Source of the DNA: Podarcis cretensis
Lineage: Eukaryota
Assembly: GCA_951804945.1 (NCBI GenBank)
Contig: OX638154.1
Coordinates: forward strand, 35,402,001-35,466,000
DNA length: 64,000 nucleotides
Direction of reading: 5' to 3'
Part shown: piece by piece, positions 9,735-64,000 of the stretch
Layout of the letters: each line of letters begins with the position of its first letter
How positions within the stretch are numbered: position 1 is the first letter of the stretch
Notes under the pieces: generated by a model
Database searches by the model: none
Told to the model about the DNA's origin: nothing
Seen by the model: the letters and a program-made list of their open reading frames with translations, nothing else
Position numbers and translations under genes: made by a program

Positions 9735-12700
9735 ACACACACACACACACACACACACACAATATAATTGCAGTTCTTTGTGACTTCAGTATTGTAAAAT
9801 GCCATGAGATACCTTTAATTTGTTTTTGTACTGCTTGCAAAAATACATACCAGTTATAAGATCCAAGAGATTCTCACCACCACCACTACCTTAAAGCAGC
9901 CAGTATGTTGTAATTAATTCTGTCAGATTGCAACCTGAAGATCTGATCTTCCCTCTTAAACCTTCTGGGATAGCAGGAGAACATGCAGTTCCAGTACCTC
10001 CTGCCACATTCTGTAACAATCCCTCTCCTCTATTTGTGACAGCAAATGAGACTTTGGTTTTACCACACCGCCAGTTAAGGGAACTAACATGGGAATATGA
10101 CAGAAGGCACAGTAGAGCAAAGTTCAGGAAGAAGCTCAGTTGTACAATATGGCAGCACTAGGTTCAGTGAGGGAAGGATGAAGATATGACTCTTTGGTTC
10201 TGTGTTCATTGACTTTTCTTTGGAAATATCTGATTTAACTTGTTTTTCTTTTTAATAGTTTATAATTTTGCTTTCAAATCTGCTTACAGGAAATTGAGGG
10301 TCAAATCGACAGGATCTGTGAGATGGGAGACGTAATAAGAAAAGCTGTTCATGTGGACAATGACCAGTATTATAAAATACAAGAAAAGCTAGCACAGTTA
10401 GAGGTAAGATGCTGAACAGCTGTAGTTGGGGATAGAAAACAGGGATGCTTGTGCCTTGTCAAAGGGTTCTTTCAGCCTCCAAGCCTAAACTAGAGTTGAT
10501 TGCTGCTTTGTTAAAAGCCAATGCCTGCCTTGAAGTCCTCCTGCTGTAGTCCTGGTACAGCTGATGAGATAGGAAAGCTGGCAGCTGAGCATCATGAAAG
10601 TAGAATCGGCACTTGCAGAATGCTGCTCCGTATCAAAGCCCTTAAAACTGCAAGTTAAGAGGCCGTAACTCTTTGAGTCAGGCTTGAATTACTGAAAATT
10701 CTGTTGCTTCACTCTGATATGGGACACATGAATTTACTGGAGGGAAAAGGGTAACACTGCATAGTATGAAAATACGGTTTCAAGTTGGCAATTAAGCAGG
10801 TTAATTGGGGGATACAGCATTCAGTAGAACCTTACGACTAGGTACAGCAAGGAGCAACATGCAACCACTGAAGCTTTCTCACATGATTAAGAAACAGCAG
10901 TTGAGGTGGATAATCAGAATCTTAGCTTATCCCTCCCCTTTGAAAGTCAGGTAGGAAGCCATGTTGGTCTGACACAGTATGTATGTATGTCCAGTAGCAC
11001 CTTAGAGACCAACTAAGTTTCTTCTTGGTATGAGCTTTCATATCTGAAGAAGCTGAAGAAGTGTGCATGCACACGAAAGCTCATACCAAGAACAAACTTA
11101 GTTGGTCTCTAAGGTGCTACTGGACAATTTTTATTAATATTTTTATATATTTCTGCTTTGAAAGTCAGTTGCAGAGGGAGCCTGTGAAAGTAGAATGGCA
11201 CTGTCTGTAAACACCGAAAAGCAAATAAAATGAAACTTATGGTTCATTTTATTTTCCTTTCAATTCCCTCCTTAAGGAACTGCCATGACTCCAAGCTCCT
11301 CAGGCAAGTGCCAATAGTGGTAATGTTTCAGCACCTCCAAAAATTATTACTATTTTATGCACTGCTTTTTACATGAGTCCGAAGGCAGTTTACAGACATA
11401 CAATAAAAAACAGCTAAAATAGTTTTTAAAGCTGAACAAAAACAACTAAAGATAGGTTTAAAAATAATGCAAAATAAACCTCTAAAACAGAAACCTTTTC
11501 ATCCAGCTGGAAAAGCTTGTTCAAACAAAACTATCCTCAGTTTCTAGAAAGTACAAATAATGGGTGCCTGTTATACCTCAATAGGGATGTTATTCCACAA
11601 AACAGGATTCAAACTTAGTTTATTAACCCTCATCCAGCCCATCACTGCACCCAGACTGTGGTCTGGGACCTACACAACCACTCCCAGTTCAGATGTTACA
11701 GAGAAATGGAGCTTGGTATCACCACAGTACTGATGACACCTCACTACAGTTTATTGTGGGAGGAGCGGGGTACTTTTCCATTGGCAAGGAGGAGTGTTGC
11801 CAGATGGCCCTAGGGTCACCTAGTCAGGTGGAGAGCTGCCACCAGTGGTTCTTCTGCCTAGATAGTCAACAGAAAGTTCTGAAACAGGATGTTTTTGTTT
11901 GGCGGAGGAGGAGTTTGGATTTGATATCCTGCTTTATCACTACCTGAAGGAGTCTCAAAGCGGCTAACATTCTCCTTTCCCTTCCTCCCCAACAACAAAC
12001 ACTCTGTGAGGTAAGTGAGGCTGAGAGACTTCAGAGAAGTGTGACTAGCCCAAGGTCACCCAGCAGCTGCATGTGGAGGAGCGGGGAAGCGAACTCGGTT
12101 CATCAGATTACGAGTCCACCGCTCTTAACCACTGCACCACACTGGGGTATCTGTGGCTTTCGATGTGCTGGACCAAAGCCCCATGAATCCCCCAAGGGGT
12201 CTAAATTCAACTGCCCCATTCCAGGGCTTCAGATGATCCATAGTGGGTTCACCGCTCCCCTCCACCCCACAGCACCCCAGATCATTTGGATTTCTCTGCA
12301 TTTATGTGTAGGAAACTTGAGCAAAGCCTCTGTTTTTTAAAAAGACCAAACCAGGATCAATTACTGCAGCCACTCCAAATGGTTGCTAGATATGTTTTTT
12401 TCTAGCTGCCTTTAAGGGAATCTTAAATACGAAGTTACAGCATTGTTGTGAAATACTATCTCACCAAACCAGCAATATGAGGATAATAACACTGGATAGC
12501 TTTTGTATTGGCACCATTTTAGTGTATTTTTTAAAACTTCATTCTCCAGACAAGTTGGCCTTGGTTTGAAGAAGCATGCTGCTGCTAAATTAGTACAACA
12601 ATTTAAGTCCTGGATTTCTCTGTGAGCAGTTGTCCCTGTTTGTCACTCTTAATGAGAGATAATCATGGCAACCAAACCAGGAAACCAATCTCCAAACAAA

Positions 12701-16950: not shown

Positions 16951-17132
16951 GGGGATCAACTGTAGCTCAGACAGAGCATCTGTTTTGCATGCAGAAGGTC
17001 CCTGGTTCAATTTCCAGGTGGGGCTGAGAGAGGTCCCTGCCTGAAACCCAAGAGAGCTGATGCCAGTCAAGGTAGACAGCACTGAACTAGATGGGCCAAG
17101 GGTCTGACTCAGTATAAGGCAGTTTCCCATGT
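16951..17132 (+). mobile_element. tRNA-derived SINE with CR1-like tail
   Basis: TAGCTCAG...GGTTCAATTTCC head and AGATGGGCCAAGGGTCTGACTCAGTATAAGGCAG tail; related copies at ~3830-3985 (-), 25159-25346 (+), 58746-58805 (-). Confidence 0.6.
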
Positions 17133-28120: not shown

Positions 28121-47309
<19,189 letters not shown>

Positions 47310-49310: not shown

Positions 49311-49839
49311 CTAGGGCTGTGCGTATTCCTGGTCCGCCGCTAGGCCCCAACTAGATCTGGCCTGCAAATGGATTGCGGACACTCGCCCGAAGCACGGGGA
49401 GCCCTCCGGAGGTCTCCCCGTGCTTCGGGCGACAGGCTGCCACCCCAAGCCTCGCGCACTCGGCGGGACCTCCCGCCAGGCGCGCAAGGCTTGCGGACAG
49501 CCACCCTCCGGAGGGCTCCCCGTGCTTCGGGCGACAAGCTGCCGCCCCAAGCCTCGCGCGCTCGGCGGGACCTCCTACCAGGCGCGCAAGGCTTGCGGAC
49601 ACTTGCCGGGGCTGCAGGCTGCTGCCCGCAAGCCTTGTGAGCCCGCGGGAACTCCTGCCGGGCTTGCAAGGCTTGTGGATAGCTTCCTGAAGGCTGGAGA
49701 GCGAGAGGGGTCAGTGCGCACCGATGCCTCTCGCTCTCCAGGCTTCAGCGAAAGCCTGCATTCGCCCCATAGGATGCACACACATTTCCCCTTCATTTTT
49801 GGAGGGGAAAAAGTGCGTCCTATGGGGTGAAAAATACGG
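49311..49839. mobile_element. CpG-rich Tc2-like element fragment (one TIR) with internal ~102-bp repeats
   Basis: Right end GTGCGTCCTATGGGGTGAAAAATACGG|TA resembles the TIR at 33972; internal tandem and inverted repeats. Confidence 0.65.
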
Positions 49840-53937: not shown

Positions 53938-57493
<3,556 letters not shown>

Positions 57494-60400
57494 TCAGGTG
57501 GGTGGCAGTTTCTGCTAAAGAAGTGATTGAGAAATATGAGGGCACAGTGTTTTTGAAGAAATCTCTTATTTTGAAGGAGAGTGATACAAACAAGTTTTGC
57601 AAAGTAGGCGTAGGAGACAGCGAGAGTCAGAAAGCTGAGTGGCAAACTGGAGAAAATGCAGAGGAATGCCTCATAAGAAGGACTTGTCAGTTTGCATCTT
57701 TAAAGCAGGCTCCTACAAAGCTCAAATAGACAAAAAGGGCTTGGCAAAAATCTTTGGAAACCTCTGACATAGGGGCTGTAGCTTCCTAATGCTAAAGTTC
57801 ATGTAATAGGTGTCAGGTCTCTATAGCCTCTTTTAAAAATAGAAGTTTAAATAACGTAAAAATCTACCAATCCCTTATCTGATAGGGATAAAATGCCTAC
57901 AGCCTGTTCCCTCTGCTCTAGCGTCATTATCCTGGGCAAACTCTACAGCTTTCTTGGTTTTTGTAGGTTTTATTCACTGGAAATTAATGCTGCATGTGGA
58001 GTTCTCCTGGGACTCTGCTTTGGCAGTCTTAAACTTTGCCCTGTTTCTGTTATAGAGCATGTAGTGGAGCAAAACTAACACGATGTATCTCTTTGTTTCA
58101 GCTGTCAAAAACATCTGGCCAACGTGCAGCTAGAGGGTGAATCTTAAGTCCACTGTTGCATTTCACCAGTACCCTGGTGCCAGTTCTAATTCTTTTCTGT
58201 CGGCACCGGAAGAGAATGTCTCTGAACATCTACCTCTTTGCTCAGCTGAGCAAGCAAAGAAAGTCTCCTCTGTTGGTGGTGGATTTCCCCACCCCACCCC
58301 CTCTTTCTCGGATAGGTTCAAACAGAGGAACTGGTTTGTGAAACTGTAGAGACCGAATACTTTGAAAGGACCATATACCTGTTTCTGGAAGGAAAGCTGG
58401 AGAAAATTGTGATCATACTGTTCTGAAAAGCCTGACTCTCCACCATTTTTGGACGGAAATGCTAGCAGCATGCCCCTGCACTGTATATCTAAAATATTTC
58501 TATAGCACACCAACTTATTGCACTTATTTTGACCTCTAGCCCTTGGCTTTCTTTCTAGTAAGAGATCTTGAATAACCAAGTGCCTATTTGCAAAGGCAGG
58601 ACAGGCCTTAAACTTACCCTGCAAAGTTCCTAGCTGTCCCATCTTGAACCTGCCTCAGACCCTTGGTCTGCCTGCTCTTGACCTGCAGTGGGTTTCCAGT
58701 GTCCTCCTTCCCTGCTCTGTTCACTGATCCTTCTTAATAGGACTTTCAGGGGATTGAATGTGGAACCTTCTACATGCAGAGCATGTGTTCTGCCATTGAG
58801 CTATATCACCTCCCCAGTAATGCACAAGGACGTCTCTGCACCGTTGACTGAAATACACATTGATCTTTAAGACCTGTGGGGAACTCCAGCAGTCATTCGC
58901 CATCCTCCAGTGTTAAATACATTTCATTTAACTCTCCTTGACAATGCTGGAAGCCATTGGTGCCTCTCACCAGGCCCAGTTAACAGCCGTGGATATTAAA
59001 ACTAACATTTACTCCAATGCCGGTCATAAATCATGGCTCTGTGAGGGCTATGTAGAGAAGATTGAACTGCCCCAGCTTTCTATGCACTTCTCTCTCTTTT
59101 TTTTAATTCGTTCAACACCTTTGTCAGGCACAGACTCTTTATTTTTGATCTGTGAAAAATGAACCAGGGGGAAACACACTTCATCAAGATTATATACTTT
59201 GAAAGCTCTTTCCGGGTGACTGCTGTGCAGTTAAGCTACAGGTAAAGAGCTAGGGGAACAAAAGGGGAACACAAAGGGATTTAGCCACACAGTTTGATGC
59301 TGCTTGGATAAAGAAGTAAATTGCTGTTGTGTATTCAGCCTTACGAACTTTGGAACTGGATTTTTCATGAGCCTATGTGCCCCATAATTCTCTGTTCAAA
59401 TGAATATTTGCTGGGAAAAGAGCTGATTGACTAGATAACCACTATTTATTTGAAAGCCATAATATTTGATCCTGGTTCTCATGTCTTGTTCCTGTTTTGC
59501 AATTGAATGTGTGAACTGCCTTGATTCTGAAGTGTTCTTGCTTGATATGATGGAAATTTGTACAAAAGTGCTGTCTGTGGTAGTTGTTTGATACATACAT
59601 GTCATTGCTAGATGTTGTGGTTATTGCATTTATAAATTCTTCCTAAGCGGGGGCCAGACTGCAGTAGAAATGGAGTACAGGACCGTAAGTCCTTTATTGG
59701 TGGTTTTATTACGTTGCCATTTTACTGTACAAGCTCTAAGTTGGAGAAATCACTGTGCAATCACAAATAGCGAGATGGTGGACACCTATTTCCTAAAATA
59801 GCTTTTCTCTTGCCTAATATGATGATGATGATGATGTATCGTTTCAGAGATGTGCAGTATTCTGAGAGGGTGTTAATATGTCTTGCATCTAGGTAAACTG
59901 TTAATCAGGTCTAGGCCTTAAGACATCACAGAACTCCCTTTCTTAAGGGCTGGTATCACTTAAGCAATAAAGTGGTACATTGTTTAAGTCCATTTCCTTT
60001 GTTTTTACGGCCAGAGTTCCTATGTCCCTTTCTTTTTGCATGGCATGTATAAATGTAACAGGTACATTGATGGAGGGGGCAGTATTTGTTGATTTTCTGC
60101 TCATCTTGTAGCTGTTCAGGATGTTGAACATGGGAGTACTGCCAGATAAAAGTGGCAGGCCTTGTACCACTTTAGGAAGTCTCCCTTCACTTGCATTTAC
60201 CATGTAAAGGTTGTGTCTGCAGAAGCCTGAAGATTAAGTGTCATTTCTGGCTGAGCTTTCTGCATATTAGCCAGCGAAAAAGCAGCAGTGAATAAGATAT
60301 TGGCCAGTTTTACACCCATTGTTAATCTGAGTCCAGTTGCTGCAGATGATATTCCTTCACTAGACTAACTTTGCAATCTCTAGAGATAAAGCATTCTTCC

Positions 60401-62872
60401 ACCTTCAGAATAATTATTATTGTTGTTATTATTATGTGCCCTGATGAACACCTACGGTAATTGATTAACTGAAACTAGTGGTCAGTATTTTTTAAAGTAT
60501 TTGTGGTATTGTTTTTAAAAATACTAGAATTCTTCTGGCTCGGGGGCAGGGGTGGTACCCTGCAGATGTTACATCTTCCCATCTTCCCTGACTAGTGGGC
60601 TGACAATTGGGACGCAGCAGCATTGCCTGCCTCTGCTCTGTGCCTTTGTAAGTGGCCAGTTTTGCCGCATGTGACTGAATTAATGGTTAGAGAAAGCACA
60701 GATATGGAGTTGAAAAGGGAAGAAAGTGCCTATTTGCTGCCTGGTGAATTTGAGTTCTGGGGTGTTTAAATATAATTTTAAAATGCTCACAATGGTGCTT
60801 GCCTCTTCAGATTCTCCACCATAATACAGGATGGTCATAAGCTACGAGAAATAATAGTAATATACATGAGCAAATGGCAAAGTTTGCATTAATAAGATCC
60901 ATACTGATTTTACAGCTAATTGAAGAAAAGCTCCCTTGTATGTTCATGAGTTATGGGAGTGACACTCTGCCAATTTCCTTCCATTTGGATAGTAGAAAAG
61001 GTGTCTTGTCTTAATTGGTCTCTAACATAACTGATTCTGCCACTGTTTTGCTCTTGCTGACAGGCAATCTCATTTCCTACAGCAGAATACCACAATTAAT
61101 ATGGGGCAGTAGATTCTGTGTGGCTAGGAAGCAAGGCATGCTTCAGCTGTGATTGCACAACACTGGATGGGCTCTCTTTTTAATGAAGTATCAGAACCCA
61201 GCATTTAAACATGGCATGTCACCAAAGGACTAAAGTCAACTCTATTACTATGTAATCCATTTCTCACTCATTTTGTGTTTTAATCAAATAATGTTTGTAA
61301 AAAAATTCTAAAATACATCGATATTATTCCTTGGTGTGTGTGCAATTCTTATTATCCATTTCATTTCTATACTGCTTTATATTTTTAAGAGGAAAGCAAA
61401 TCTCAAAGCGGTTTGCAACCTTGGGATACTAGTAGTAACTTCTAAGTGGCAAAGAAGTATGAGCCTGCTTAAAAGTCACTGTAAATCTATAAGTAATGAC
61501 GGAGTGATCTGAACTGGTCTGAACCCTATATTACTCAATCAAACCACAGCAAGCCTGCTGCTGTGTCATAGACTCTGTCTGACAGTAAGGAAATTGATTT
61601 ACACTTATCTGTCTTTATCTTCACCTCCCACTTGCTTTAGATAAGTCTATCGTGGGGGAAGTCTCTAGGTTTCCTGTTCTCTCTTCAGCTTAGAGGGTTT
61701 CCCCCTTCCTAAATCATACTTTGTAGCTGGACTAGAGATTCTCCATTAGTTATACATGGGTGATGGTGGAAAGTTCCTGAGTAAAGGCCGGTATGAAAGC
61801 TAGCATGGTGTAGTGGTCAGAATGTCAGACTGGAGGAGATCTGGGTTCAAATCCCCAGTCAGCCATTATGCTTACTTGGCCCAATTACTCAGCATAGTCT
61901 TCACAGGTTTGTGAGGCTAAGCCAGAGGTCTTTGAGGAGAGCAACTTGGGAAAAGGCTGGGATGTAATAAATGAATGATTTCTCTTTTACCTTAAGGGGC
62001 ATCGCTTTTCCTTAGGGAGCACAAAGCTACAATTTCTCCTATGTCCACAGACTACAGTCTGATTAGTGGGATAAGCCCATCTGGGCAAACAAGACTTCTA
62101 TTGTTGGGAATTTAGAGCCTATAATCCTACCTCTGCCAAGCACTTGCACTTTCTGCTTTTGAAAGGGCCGTAGTGGATCCAGTTTATCTTCAATGTGAAT
62201 TCAAAACTTCTTTAGGGTTGGTTGTCATGGATGACAAACCCTAGCCTGCTTCTACCCTGAAGTCACATTTTTGCACATGGGCCAGCGGTTGCTCAGAAAT
62301 GTGGATTATCTGTTCCTAGGTGAGTAATACATATATGGTATTTAGTCTTCAGATTTTAGTGATGTTTGCCACCCCTTTTCTAGGTGCCCAGGACATTGAG
62401 ACCTTTAATTCCTAGACTCGATTGCCACGTTGACTCATTTTCTGGGATTTGCAAGCTCCTCTCACAGGAGCTCAAGAGGAAAGCATAAATGCATTTTGGT
62501 GGGTACTGCAAAATGATAAGCAACAAAGCCAGAACAGTTTTCATGAGAACATTGTTGTTTTACCTCTCTGTTGAAGAAGTTTGGTTCTGTAGAAGCAGTG
62601 TGAAGAAGCTCATTTGAAGGAGAAACACTTACCAGGAAAATGTTATGCAGGATGTGTCCTATCTGCTTTCTTTGAATCATAGTGGCTGGGTAGGACAATT
62701 ACAGAACTGTACTGTTGAATTGGTACACTAAATGGGCAGAGGGTTTTTTGTGTTGTTGTTTTTGGTAACTATAACAGCCCATCCCTTTCCTCTAAAGTAG
62801 GAATGGGAAACCTGTGGCACTCCAGATGTTGTTGAACTTGCCTCAGCCAGCATGGCCAATGCTCAGGGATGA

Positions 62873-63160
62873 CATAGTCAAAAACAACCTATCAAAAGCA
62901 AACCTATCAAAAGCAAAACAAAAAAAATCCACAACCTATCAAAAGCAAAACAAAAAAAATTCCTTCCAGTAGCACCTTAAAGACCAACTAAGTTAGTTCT
63001 TGGTATGAGCTTTTGTGGTATGAGCTTTCAGGTATCTGAAGAAGTGTGCATGCACACGAAAGCTCATACCAAGAACTAACTTAGTTGGTCTTTAAGGTGC
63101 TACTGGAAGGAATTTTTTTTGTTTTGACTATGGCAGACCAACACGGCTACCTATCTGTAA
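62873..63160. mobile_element. Penelope-like fold-back retroelement remnant
   Basis: 68-bp perfect inverted arms (62946-63013 / 63059-63126) around a hammerhead core; CTATCAAAAGCA repeated on both flanks. Confidence 0.7.
63031..63070 (+). ncRNA. Minimal type I hammerhead ribozyme motif
   Basis: GGUAU-CUGAAGA-A-GUGUGCAUGCACAC-GAAA-GC-UC/AUACC: complete catalytic core, helix I GGUAU:AUACC, helix II hairpin, palindromic AGCU helix III. Confidence 0.72.
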
Positions 63161-63782
63161 CTATCAAAAGCAGTTCTCATTCCTCCTCTAAAGCTGCTGC
63201 AGGTGTGTTACTCTGGTATAAATTATCAGAAAGGAGCAAGCAGAATCTACGTATGTTTACTTCTCTCTAAATACTGGAGCTGGCTGGTGGCTTTCAATGC
63301 TTGCCATGCAGAGGAAATTCAATCCCTTAGTTATCTGATATGACCACATGCAAGTGTGACTTGGACAAGGGCTGTTGCTTCAAGAAAGAGTAGTAAGAGC
63401 TAGTCTGTGATGTGTGGATTATTTGTGCGAGTGTACAAACAGAAACAGCATTTCCCATACTTCTCCTAGAGGTCACAATTTGTTTTTATGAATTAGAACC
63501 ACAGGCAGAGCACTCATGGCAATATCTAAATTAAAATGAAGTTGTGCCGCCAAGAGTGAGACCTTACATTTGAACCCTGATTGTAGAGTTGGAAGTGACT
63601 GTGAGCATCATCTAGTCCACTCCCTGCAATGCAGGAATTACTATTGCACTGGGGAAATGTCTGTGCAGCGCACTTCTCCCATTCCTTTGCTTCCCACTTT
63701 CTTTTTCCTAGTGTAAAGTATGAAGCCTTTCCCTACATGTACCTGAGCTGACATGTCCTCAGCTGCCACCTTGTTTCAGCAC

Positions 63783-64000
63783 AGGACGTGGGTGGCGCTG
63801 TGGTCTAAAACCACTGAGCTTCTTGGGCTTGCCGATTAGAAAGTCAGCGGTTTGAATCCCCACAATGGGGTGAGCTCCCATTGCTCTGTCCCAGCTCCAG
63901 CCAACCTAGCAGTTTGAAAGCACACTAGTGCAAGTAGATAAATAGGTACCATTGTGGCGGGGAAAGTAAACAGCGTTTCCATGTGCTCTGGTTTCCGCCA
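63783..64000 (+). mobile_element. Sauria SINE, cut off by the window end
   Basis: Co-linear with the 5' part of the 56283 copy. Confidence 0.8.

Follow-up and report, generated by a model that had tools for sequence, protein, structure and literature searches.

The window analysed here, a 64,000-nucleotide stretch of the Podarcis cretensis genome, contains SIKE1, CSDE1 and a Ras gene, all on the plus strand. The Ras exons we take to be those of NRAS, going by their sequence and by gene order. A minimal type I hammerhead motif is found 5.5 kb downstream of the NRAS stop codon; NRAS is itself on the plus strand, so the motif does lie on the NRAS sense strand, as an initial annotation of this DNA had stated. 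It is carried by a 272-bp insertion (copy 1, 62889-63160), and a related insertion (copy 2, 10951-11155) resides within a SIKE1 intron, whose exons lie near 10300 and 13450. The target-site duplications measure 12 bp for copy 1 and 13 bp for copy 2. Coordinates of all features are collected in Table 1.

Several other repeats were observed in the window. One CSDE1 intron feature is a 66-bp, 94% inverted repeat with a 5-nt spacer (29868-30004), which is not of the Penelope-like element (PLE) family described below and has no hammerhead core; another is a tandem array with a period of ~154 bp and open frames across its units (32839-33867). The region between CSDE1 and NRAS contains a 102-bp tandem pair, rich in GC, beside an imperfect palindrome (49370-49601), and two related SINE-like copies, 85% identical over 102 nt, occupy 56285-56640 (an NRAS intron) and 63780-64000.

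Table 1 Features of the two insertions, the hammerhead motif and their surroundings (window coordinates)
Feature	Position	Strand	Description
Copy 2, left target-site duplication	10938..10950	+	13 bp
Copy 2, tail	10948..10978	-	~31 bp, inverted (left) arm only; 84% over 31 nt to 63127-63157
Copy 2, inverted arm	10988..11039	-	Ends 8 nt past the predicted cut site
Copy 2, direct arm	11040..11155	+	Core duplicated, helix I broken
Copy 2, right target-site duplication	11156..11168	+	13 bp
NRAS coding span	53974..57493	+	CDS start 53974, stop 57491-57493
MITE-like short inverted-repeat element	62799..62888		Unrelated; at the landing site
Copy 1, left target duplication	62889..62947	+	12 bp, present three times (62889, 62904, 62936); stuttered left junction
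Copy 1, inverted arm	62946..63017	-	Antisense of 63055-63126 (72 nt, 99%), without tail
Copy 1, re-copied piece of inverted arm	63018..63029	-	12 nt at the head-to-head junction, antisense of 63058-63069
Copy 1, direct arm	63030..63126	+	5′-truncated piece of the PLE terminal repeat (pLTR), with the hammerhead, a conserved 3′ part and an A/T-rich linker
Minimal type I hammerhead motif	63031..63070	+	Helix I, core, extra A, 5-bp helix II, GAAA-GC-UC
Helix I	63031-63035, 63066-63070		5′ strand, 3′ strand
Core CTGAAGA	63036-63042		Followed by extra A, A63043
Helix II with loop	63044..63057		Perfect 14-nt palindrome
GAAA	63058-63061		Then GC and TC (C63065)
Copy 1, tail	63127..63160	+	34 bp, right arm only; joined to right flank in run X4
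Copy 1, right target-site duplication	63161..63172	+	12 bp; X5 and X8 contigs match from exactly 63161

A minimal hammerhead motif of the Penelope-like type

Every element of the motif at 63031-63070 was found where the initial annotation had placed it, with the CUGANGA core and the GAAA..UH letters present (63036-63042, 63058-63061 and 63064-63065) and the predicted cleavage site separating 63065 from 63066. On scanning both strands of the window with a descriptor we obtained this one motif, and a relaxed scan likewise returned one and not two, while in 100 dinucleotide-preserving shuffles there were 0 matches per window under strict criteria and 0.02 under loose criteria. Helix III is absent, the AGCT at 63061-63064 is self-complementary (positions 15.2-16.2 are palindromic), and helix I is short. 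The annotation had treated the extra base after A9 as a tolerated variant known from a viroid hammerhead. It is instead the consensus of PLE hammerheads, and both A63043 and the G63044-C63057 pair fit the features of minimal PLE hammerheads (PMC4209133; publications are cited here for the parts available). With core, extra A, AGCU palindrome and short helix I all in place, the assignment to the PLE-type minimal type I hammerheads was upheld. The term intact applies to the letters, which are complete; any cleavage activity is putative.

Helix I comprises 5 bp in copy 1. For the family we arrive at 4 bp, because the base opposite C63070 is T in all nine translated family copies that cover the position; the outermost pair, G63031-C63070, is thus likely private to copy 1, an accident of the junction. 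Positions 63036-63070 are free of differences between the two window copies (n=2). Folded alone, 63031-63070 forms helices I and II, with a z of only -1.75.

The Infernal/Rfam comparison that the annotation had proposed yielded no hammerhead family match in the window. At the gathering score, the whole window gave a single, tRNA-like match (16960-17021, likely another SINE head), and a search of 62850-63250 at E<=10 gave 16 matches, none to a hammerhead and all far below the gathering score. Minimal PLE hammerheads are defined by descriptor, and this null lowers the Rfam label only. The motif is real, of a known kind and, as a ribozyme, ordinary.

Two fold-back insertions

In copy 1, the perfect 68-bp inverted repeat reported earlier was confirmed to the letter, 62946-63013 being the exact reverse complement of 63059-63126 (68/68). 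The inverted arm extends 11 nt beyond the predicted cut site. The frame of the direct arm is also read in four unnamed ENA translations (P0001, P0002, P0005 and P0007), which belong to a set described in the next section. At the left junction, the second and third copies of the target duplication each precede pieces of the arm start. The triple duplication (62889-62960) looks as if synthesis had restarted twice, and is one case only.

The insertion landed beside a MITE-like repeat (62799-62888) that, compared with other copies, appears without matching stretches in both arms. Loose contig ends occur in it at 62838, 62840 and 62872 (range 62799-62872), and a related copy lies at 36445-36582. 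We considered the stretch 62873-62888 as derived from the insertion and rejected this; it agrees with the terminus of the MITE-like repeat and with the empty-site count given below.

The initial annotation had counted two copies of the motif in 64 kb. Two copies of the element are indeed present, but the ribozyme of copy 2 is not intact. Because copy 2 carries the core twice and has lost helix I, one intact motif remains in the window. Within 63036-63107, copies 1 and 2 differ at two of 72 positions (63077 and 63092). At both positions, each copy has its own variant in the direct arm and, in mirror image, in the inverted arm; each hairpin must therefore have been made from one template. An inverted, 5′-truncated copy adjoins the direct copy in both window copies (2/2) and also in translations P0002 and P0006. 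The tail is on opposite sides, attached to the right arm in copy 1 and to the left arm in copy 2.

Three marks characterise PLE insertions, namely an adjacent inverted 5′-truncated copy, a tail of 30-40 bp on a single end and a target duplication of variable length (PMC3846280, PMC8557442, PMC8969392). The window copies have the inverted copy, the one-sided tail and the duplications and, judged by these sequence marks, are both 5′-truncated insertions of an endonuclease-positive PLE.

A partner element with RT and GIY-YIG domains

Neither window copy is autonomous, as the locus lacks an ORF with reverse transcriptase (RT) and GIY-YIG domains. We obtained no tblastn match of the partner proteins P0013, P0016 and P0017 in the window at E<=1, and no RT or GIY-YIG domain in a Pfam search of 95 open frames near both copies, a run that also took in 3 gene controls and 2 fetched proteins.

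The partner was found through translations of other copies. A translated-motif search of unnamed ENA proteins returned 2 entries, then 7 including the query, with 5 further cluster members; these “proteins” are other copies of the element read in frame. As a side observation, P0001-P0012 are spurious ENA translations of a lizard repeat, likely from host DNA in assembled samples. P0006 reads the antisense arm through the motif, with 11 of its first 12 residues equal to the antisense frame of the window, and continues into a 55-aa stretch that is 85% identical to the C-terminus of P0013. P0013 itself contains RVT_1 and GIY-YIG domains above Pfam cut-offs. Its 90% cluster has seven members, four of them named, from Podarcis raffonei, Podarcis muralis and Zootoca vivipara. 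A search of solved structures gave no match to P0013. Similarly, P0003 and its cluster run antisense from the motif to a stretch that is codon-compatible with the last five residues and stop of the ORF, with ~180 nt between helix I and the stop; this degenerate codon match is equalled by 79 of 200,000 shuffles. Because P0006 and P0003 join the motif to the end of the ORF, we place the motif in the 3′ terminal repeat of an RT + GIY-YIG element. The distance of ~180 nt behind the stop is indirect evidence, pieced together from translated copies and not from one DNA record.

The Penelope link of the initial annotation, which had suggested looking for RT and GIY-YIG reading frames, was therefore borne out through translated copies and not in the window. 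Its separate non-autonomous family, on the other hand, is not required. An autonomous element has this very sequence as its terminal repeat, and copies vary in their junctions and in the side of the tail. We also discarded the possibility that the family has no sequence upstream of 63032, since translated copies continue upstream to the PLE ORF.

Longer members of the P0013 cluster carry DKG, YIDD, a CX4CxxC linker and a CxxC (two cysteines) inside GIY-YIG. A CX2-5CxxC linker marks Neptune or Nematis and, in the available part of PMC8557442, is absent in Penelope/Poseidon; for vertebrates, only Neptune and Poseidon are reported in the available part of a recent preprint (bioRxiv 10.64898/2026.07.22.740005). 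The partner agrees with the definition of Neptune, having a C-terminal GIY-YIG with CCHH, the CX2-5CxxC linker, which Nematis shares, and DKG. On these sequence features it likely belongs to the Neptune clade.

In the tail, an ATG at 63130 begins a short reading frame, which copy 2, P0005 and P0007 also preserve. This ATG may be the start of the element ORF, as in other PLE tails, and is a candidate on sequence grounds. When the tail frame was used to look for the ORF start, none of 7 candidates was matched at E<=10, and any start at the tail ATG would lie upstream of the point where the named partner proteins begin.

Abundance and age of the insertion

Contigs of four public runs (of 24 listed) were aligned to 60000-63750. 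In the three DNA-like runs, the summed contig depth over 63024-63149, set against the single-copy flank, reached 3.7e4 (X4), 8.8e4 (X5) and 1.2e5 (X8), sums that are not a copy number. The very high depth over the element in all three runs supports the earlier claim of an abundant family. Pattern scans of metagenome, viral and prokaryote collections gave 0 matches, as expected for a vertebrate repeat.

In X4, which is from the same organism and another sample, a contig joins the tail to the right flank, and the insertion thus looks to be present in a second individual. In X5 and X8, from two other related organisms, the contig match starts at 63161, the first base of the duplication. The letters before this position number 46 (X5) and 48 (X8), and 49 are expected for an empty site, assuming 31-letter words. 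The insertion is likely absent in these two organisms, a deduction from lengths rather than read letters, and is likely recent.

The 5′ edge of the direct arms

Both direct arms in the window begin within 4 nt of helix I. Among the joints listed for contigs (15 of 218), nine fall at 63030-63033, and among the junction rows listed (12 of 143), seven fall at 63031-63035, two of them with a single letter between arm and start; this clustering is inflated, as the reference itself is cut at that point. P0001, P0002, P0005 and P0007 start near helix I as well, a set that an upstream in-frame stop could bias.

In seven of the nine translated copies, the sole TATA-compatible windows precede, by 22-33 nt, an initiator-like word that lies immediately 5′ of helix I. 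These are three overlapping windows of 65 in full-length readings, and two of the nine copies are incompatible. Being derived from degenerate back-translation, they give a hint of a TATA-compatible stretch above the ribozyme. By analogy with Penelope of D. virilis, for which there is a splice acceptor precedent (PMC4209133, PMC2377424), the sequence leading up to helix I could act as a splice acceptor, or it could be the RNA start. That direct arms often start at the 5′ edge of the ribozyme, below a TATA-compatible stretch, is a lead worth keeping.

X4 also contains a joint from 63162, the end of the tail, to 63034, with two G between them and a depth of 1,343 versus 116 for single-copy sequence; its direction is not printed. 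It suggests about a dozen head-to-tail units of ~130 nt in X4, which could be active dimers or a retrozyme-like subfamily. Another recurrent joint in X4 runs from 63120 (A/T-rich linker) to 63040 (core) at a depth of 1,071, its orientation likewise not printed.

We can offer, tentatively, a broader reading. A TATA/initiator promoter in the pLTR would start RNA 0-4 nt before the ribozyme, and the ~130-nt RNA from ribozyme to tail would be a self-contained template, copied from both nicked strands, whose copies would number tens of thousands in lizard genomes, as hairpins centred on the hammerhead and each made anew, alongside some tandem dimer-competent units. If this were true, each junction would be a frozen record of an unresolved step of PLE integration, and the ribozyme would be the 5′ module of the RNA, not the cutter that defines the copied RNA.

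Folding in NRAS read-through RNA

The hairpin and ribozyme folds had been described as mutually exclusive. Our predictions agree, with the hairpin favoured by 29 kcal/mol: within the hairpin of 62946-63126, imposing the hammerhead takes 29.5 kcal/mol. The penalty falls to ~9 kcal/mol when the 12-nt antisense piece is all that precedes the motif, and in the absence of any left arm (a transcript from 63031) helices I and II have a probability of ~0.17. In the context of read-through RNA, the predicted hammerhead share is ~1e-21. The ribozyme is thus predicted to be folded shut in NRAS read-through RNA, according to these models, and likely does nothing to NRAS. A special tie to NRAS, as implied by the initial annotation, was not sustained, given that the motif is 5.5 kb past the stop, predicted to be sequestered and likely missing from the site in two related organisms. 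In X15, a run guessed to be RNA, contigs have a depth of ~50 over most of 60000-61210 and no cover over 62268-62771; this single contig run says nothing firm on the NRAS 3′ end. No piled-up ends were returned from the contig alignment, in which RNA ends would not show.

Proposed origin and alternative explanations

Overall, we consider it very probable that the 272-bp insertion, flanked by its duplicated target site, is a fold-back stump derived from the terminal repeat of an abundant PLE with RT and GIY-YIG (likely Neptune) and carries a minimal hammerhead motif, that the insertion is likely recent, and that the motif is predicted to be folded shut in NRAS read-through RNA. In the mechanism we propose, the element protein would nick both target strands 12 bp apart, and each nicked end would prime reverse transcription at one of two neighbouring internal sites, the tail end and the tail start. 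The template would be uncleaved RNA; all four window arms span the predicted cut site. One short cDNA would reach the 5′ edge of the ribozyme, likely the RNA start, and the two short cDNAs would be joined head to head at a shared TTTC. Each insertion would in this way create its own hairpin, in which one arm bears the tail. Any activity of the ribozyme would be expected in tandem element RNA, as a dimer or together with the element protein, and not at this locus.

How the mirror arm arises divides this proposal from a close relative, in which the same element is involved and the arm stems from fold-back self-priming of one cDNA (or from an antisense template) at the ribozyme palindromes. We regard that version as possible but rather doubtful. 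The junction does lie in a stretch rich in self-complementary words (the 14-nt helix II palindrome, AGCT, helix I), short re-copied pieces occur at both junctions, and self-priming is preferred for the inverted arm in PMC3846280. However, a fold-back at helix I predicts arms that meet there, whereas the arms observed here pass the cut site by 8-11 nt before the jump; either arm can bear the tail; and the anole element described below extends both target strands in vitro (PMC11167929). Carried over from that element, two-strand priming would explain both window copies, and the choice between it and self-priming is about evenly balanced. Double priming was shown for a Poseidon element, which is of a different clade from the partner. 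A further departure from the proposed terminal-repeat stump would be a dedicated non-autonomous, retrozyme-like unit of ~130 nt, from ribozyme start to tail end, with its own transcription or tandems/circles and mobilised in trans by a PLE protein. It could draw on the depth of the X4 joint, on the start of both window copies <=4 nt from helix I, on the clustering at 63030-63035 (9/15 of the joints and 7/12 of the junction rows listed) and on reptile retrozymes, which average 176 bp and are pLTR-derived (10.64898/2026.07.22.740005). Yet the sequence continues upstream to a PLE ORF in other copies, neither window locus has a tandem, junctions differ among copies 1 and 2, P0001, P0002 and P0006, and the X4 joint has no printed direction. 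Short pLTR RNA of ordinary elements would give the same stumps, so that the two readings overlap, and we judge a dedicated unit unlikely.

Two further readings were weighed. A MITE-like DNA element or a microRNA hairpin with incidental hammerhead letters would account for the long perfect inverted repeat and for the low E-values of Rfam microRNA models, but those matches reflect pairing only, scoring far below the gathering score (for example, 61 vs 95 bits). The unequal arms, the tail on one arm, the 12-13 bp duplications, the tie to an RT + GIY-YIG ORF and the motif's occurrence in 0/100 shuffles make this reading scarcely credible; provided that it holds in genomic DNA, the tie to the ORF already refutes it. 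An active cis element that cuts NRAS read-through RNA, for fail-safe termination or decay, is likewise very improbable. The motif is on the NRAS strand, low-depth contigs of guessed RNA from a related organism cover 61398-61543, 61812-62247 and 63313-63510, and an RNA starting at 63031 would form helices I and II at the probability given above. In read-through RNA, however, the antisense arm comes first and leaves the vanishing predicted hammerhead share; moreover, monomers of minimal PLE hammerheads are uncut (PMC4209133), the window has no second intact copy on the same strand, and the insertion is likely absent at the site in two related organisms.

Comparison with known systems

Published examples, reptiles among them, already cover the class of ribozyme, the extra base that follows A9 and the AGCU palindrome. 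Cervera and de la Pena (2014) found thousands of solo motifs per genome, which they ascribed to truncated PLEs, naming reptiles (PMC4209133). The minimal hammerheads of that study share with ours CUGAAGA with an extra A, a helix II that opens with G-C, GAAA-G-C-U-H, the AGCU palindrome and a short helix I. Their monomers did not cleave and their dimers cleaved little (PMC4209133), and of nine Xenopus dimers eight were uncut (bioRxiv 10.64898/2026.07.22.740005). The closest relative is the Chrysemys picta motif of Fig. S3 (PMC4209133), with the same core, 5-bp helix II and G-C-U arrangement; it differs from the window motif in helix II loop and helix I letters, and the window motif has C, not U, at the cut site. 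The available part of that alignment has no lizard row. In the literature that was searched, neither this lacertid family nor its sequence appeared; both are very likely to be present in Repbase, Dfam or subscription journals, which were outside the search.

Among non-LTR retrozymes (PMC7229834; bioRxiv 10.64898/2026.07.22.740005), the resemblance extends to short non-coding, pLTR-related units with type I hammerheads, in reptiles. Retrozymes are head-to-tail tandems, whereas both window copies are head-to-head singles and hence fall outside the non-LTR retrozymes; other members of the family may belong there, given the X4 joint.

Endonuclease-positive PLEs (PMC3846280, PMC8557442) offer another parallel, with an inverted truncated copy, an optional tail at one end and a variable duplication. 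In Pen2a_Av, a TATA box and initiator lie inside the pLTR, and the ORF start lies inside the pLTR plus tail (PMC3846280, PMC8557442). Compared with described PLE insertions, the window copies have only ~100-130 nt per arm and no ORF, and the left target site of copy 1 is present three times. For the study of PLE integration after the first priming and of the role of PLE hammerheads, young and very abundant insertions of ~200-270 bp with empty sites in close relatives would make the tail, inversion point, 5′ edge and target stutter countable over thousands of events. Long perfect hairpins in introns and read-through RNA may also matter for the load of double-stranded RNA.

A further counterpart is Poseidon_Ac (PAc) of Anolis carolinensis, whose purified protein nicks and extends both target strands (Frangieh 2024, PMC11167929). 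Two neighbouring internal starts of reverse transcription bound its tail, uncleaved RNA is the template, and its ribozyme is not needed in vitro and cuts only with the protein (PMC11167929). PAc (PMC11167929) resembles the family described here in being a lizard PLE whose minimal hammerhead lies where pLTR and ORF meet and, under the mechanism proposed above, in copying uncleaved RNA from two internal starts that define the tail. Its start codon is at helix II, while the window's candidate ATG, proposed from sequence, is 60 nt past the motif. The partner element carries the CX2-5CxxC linker that is missing from Penelope/Poseidon, and therefore belongs to a clade other than that of PAc. The family provides a lizard partner protein from outside Poseidon that the established in vitro assay could use.
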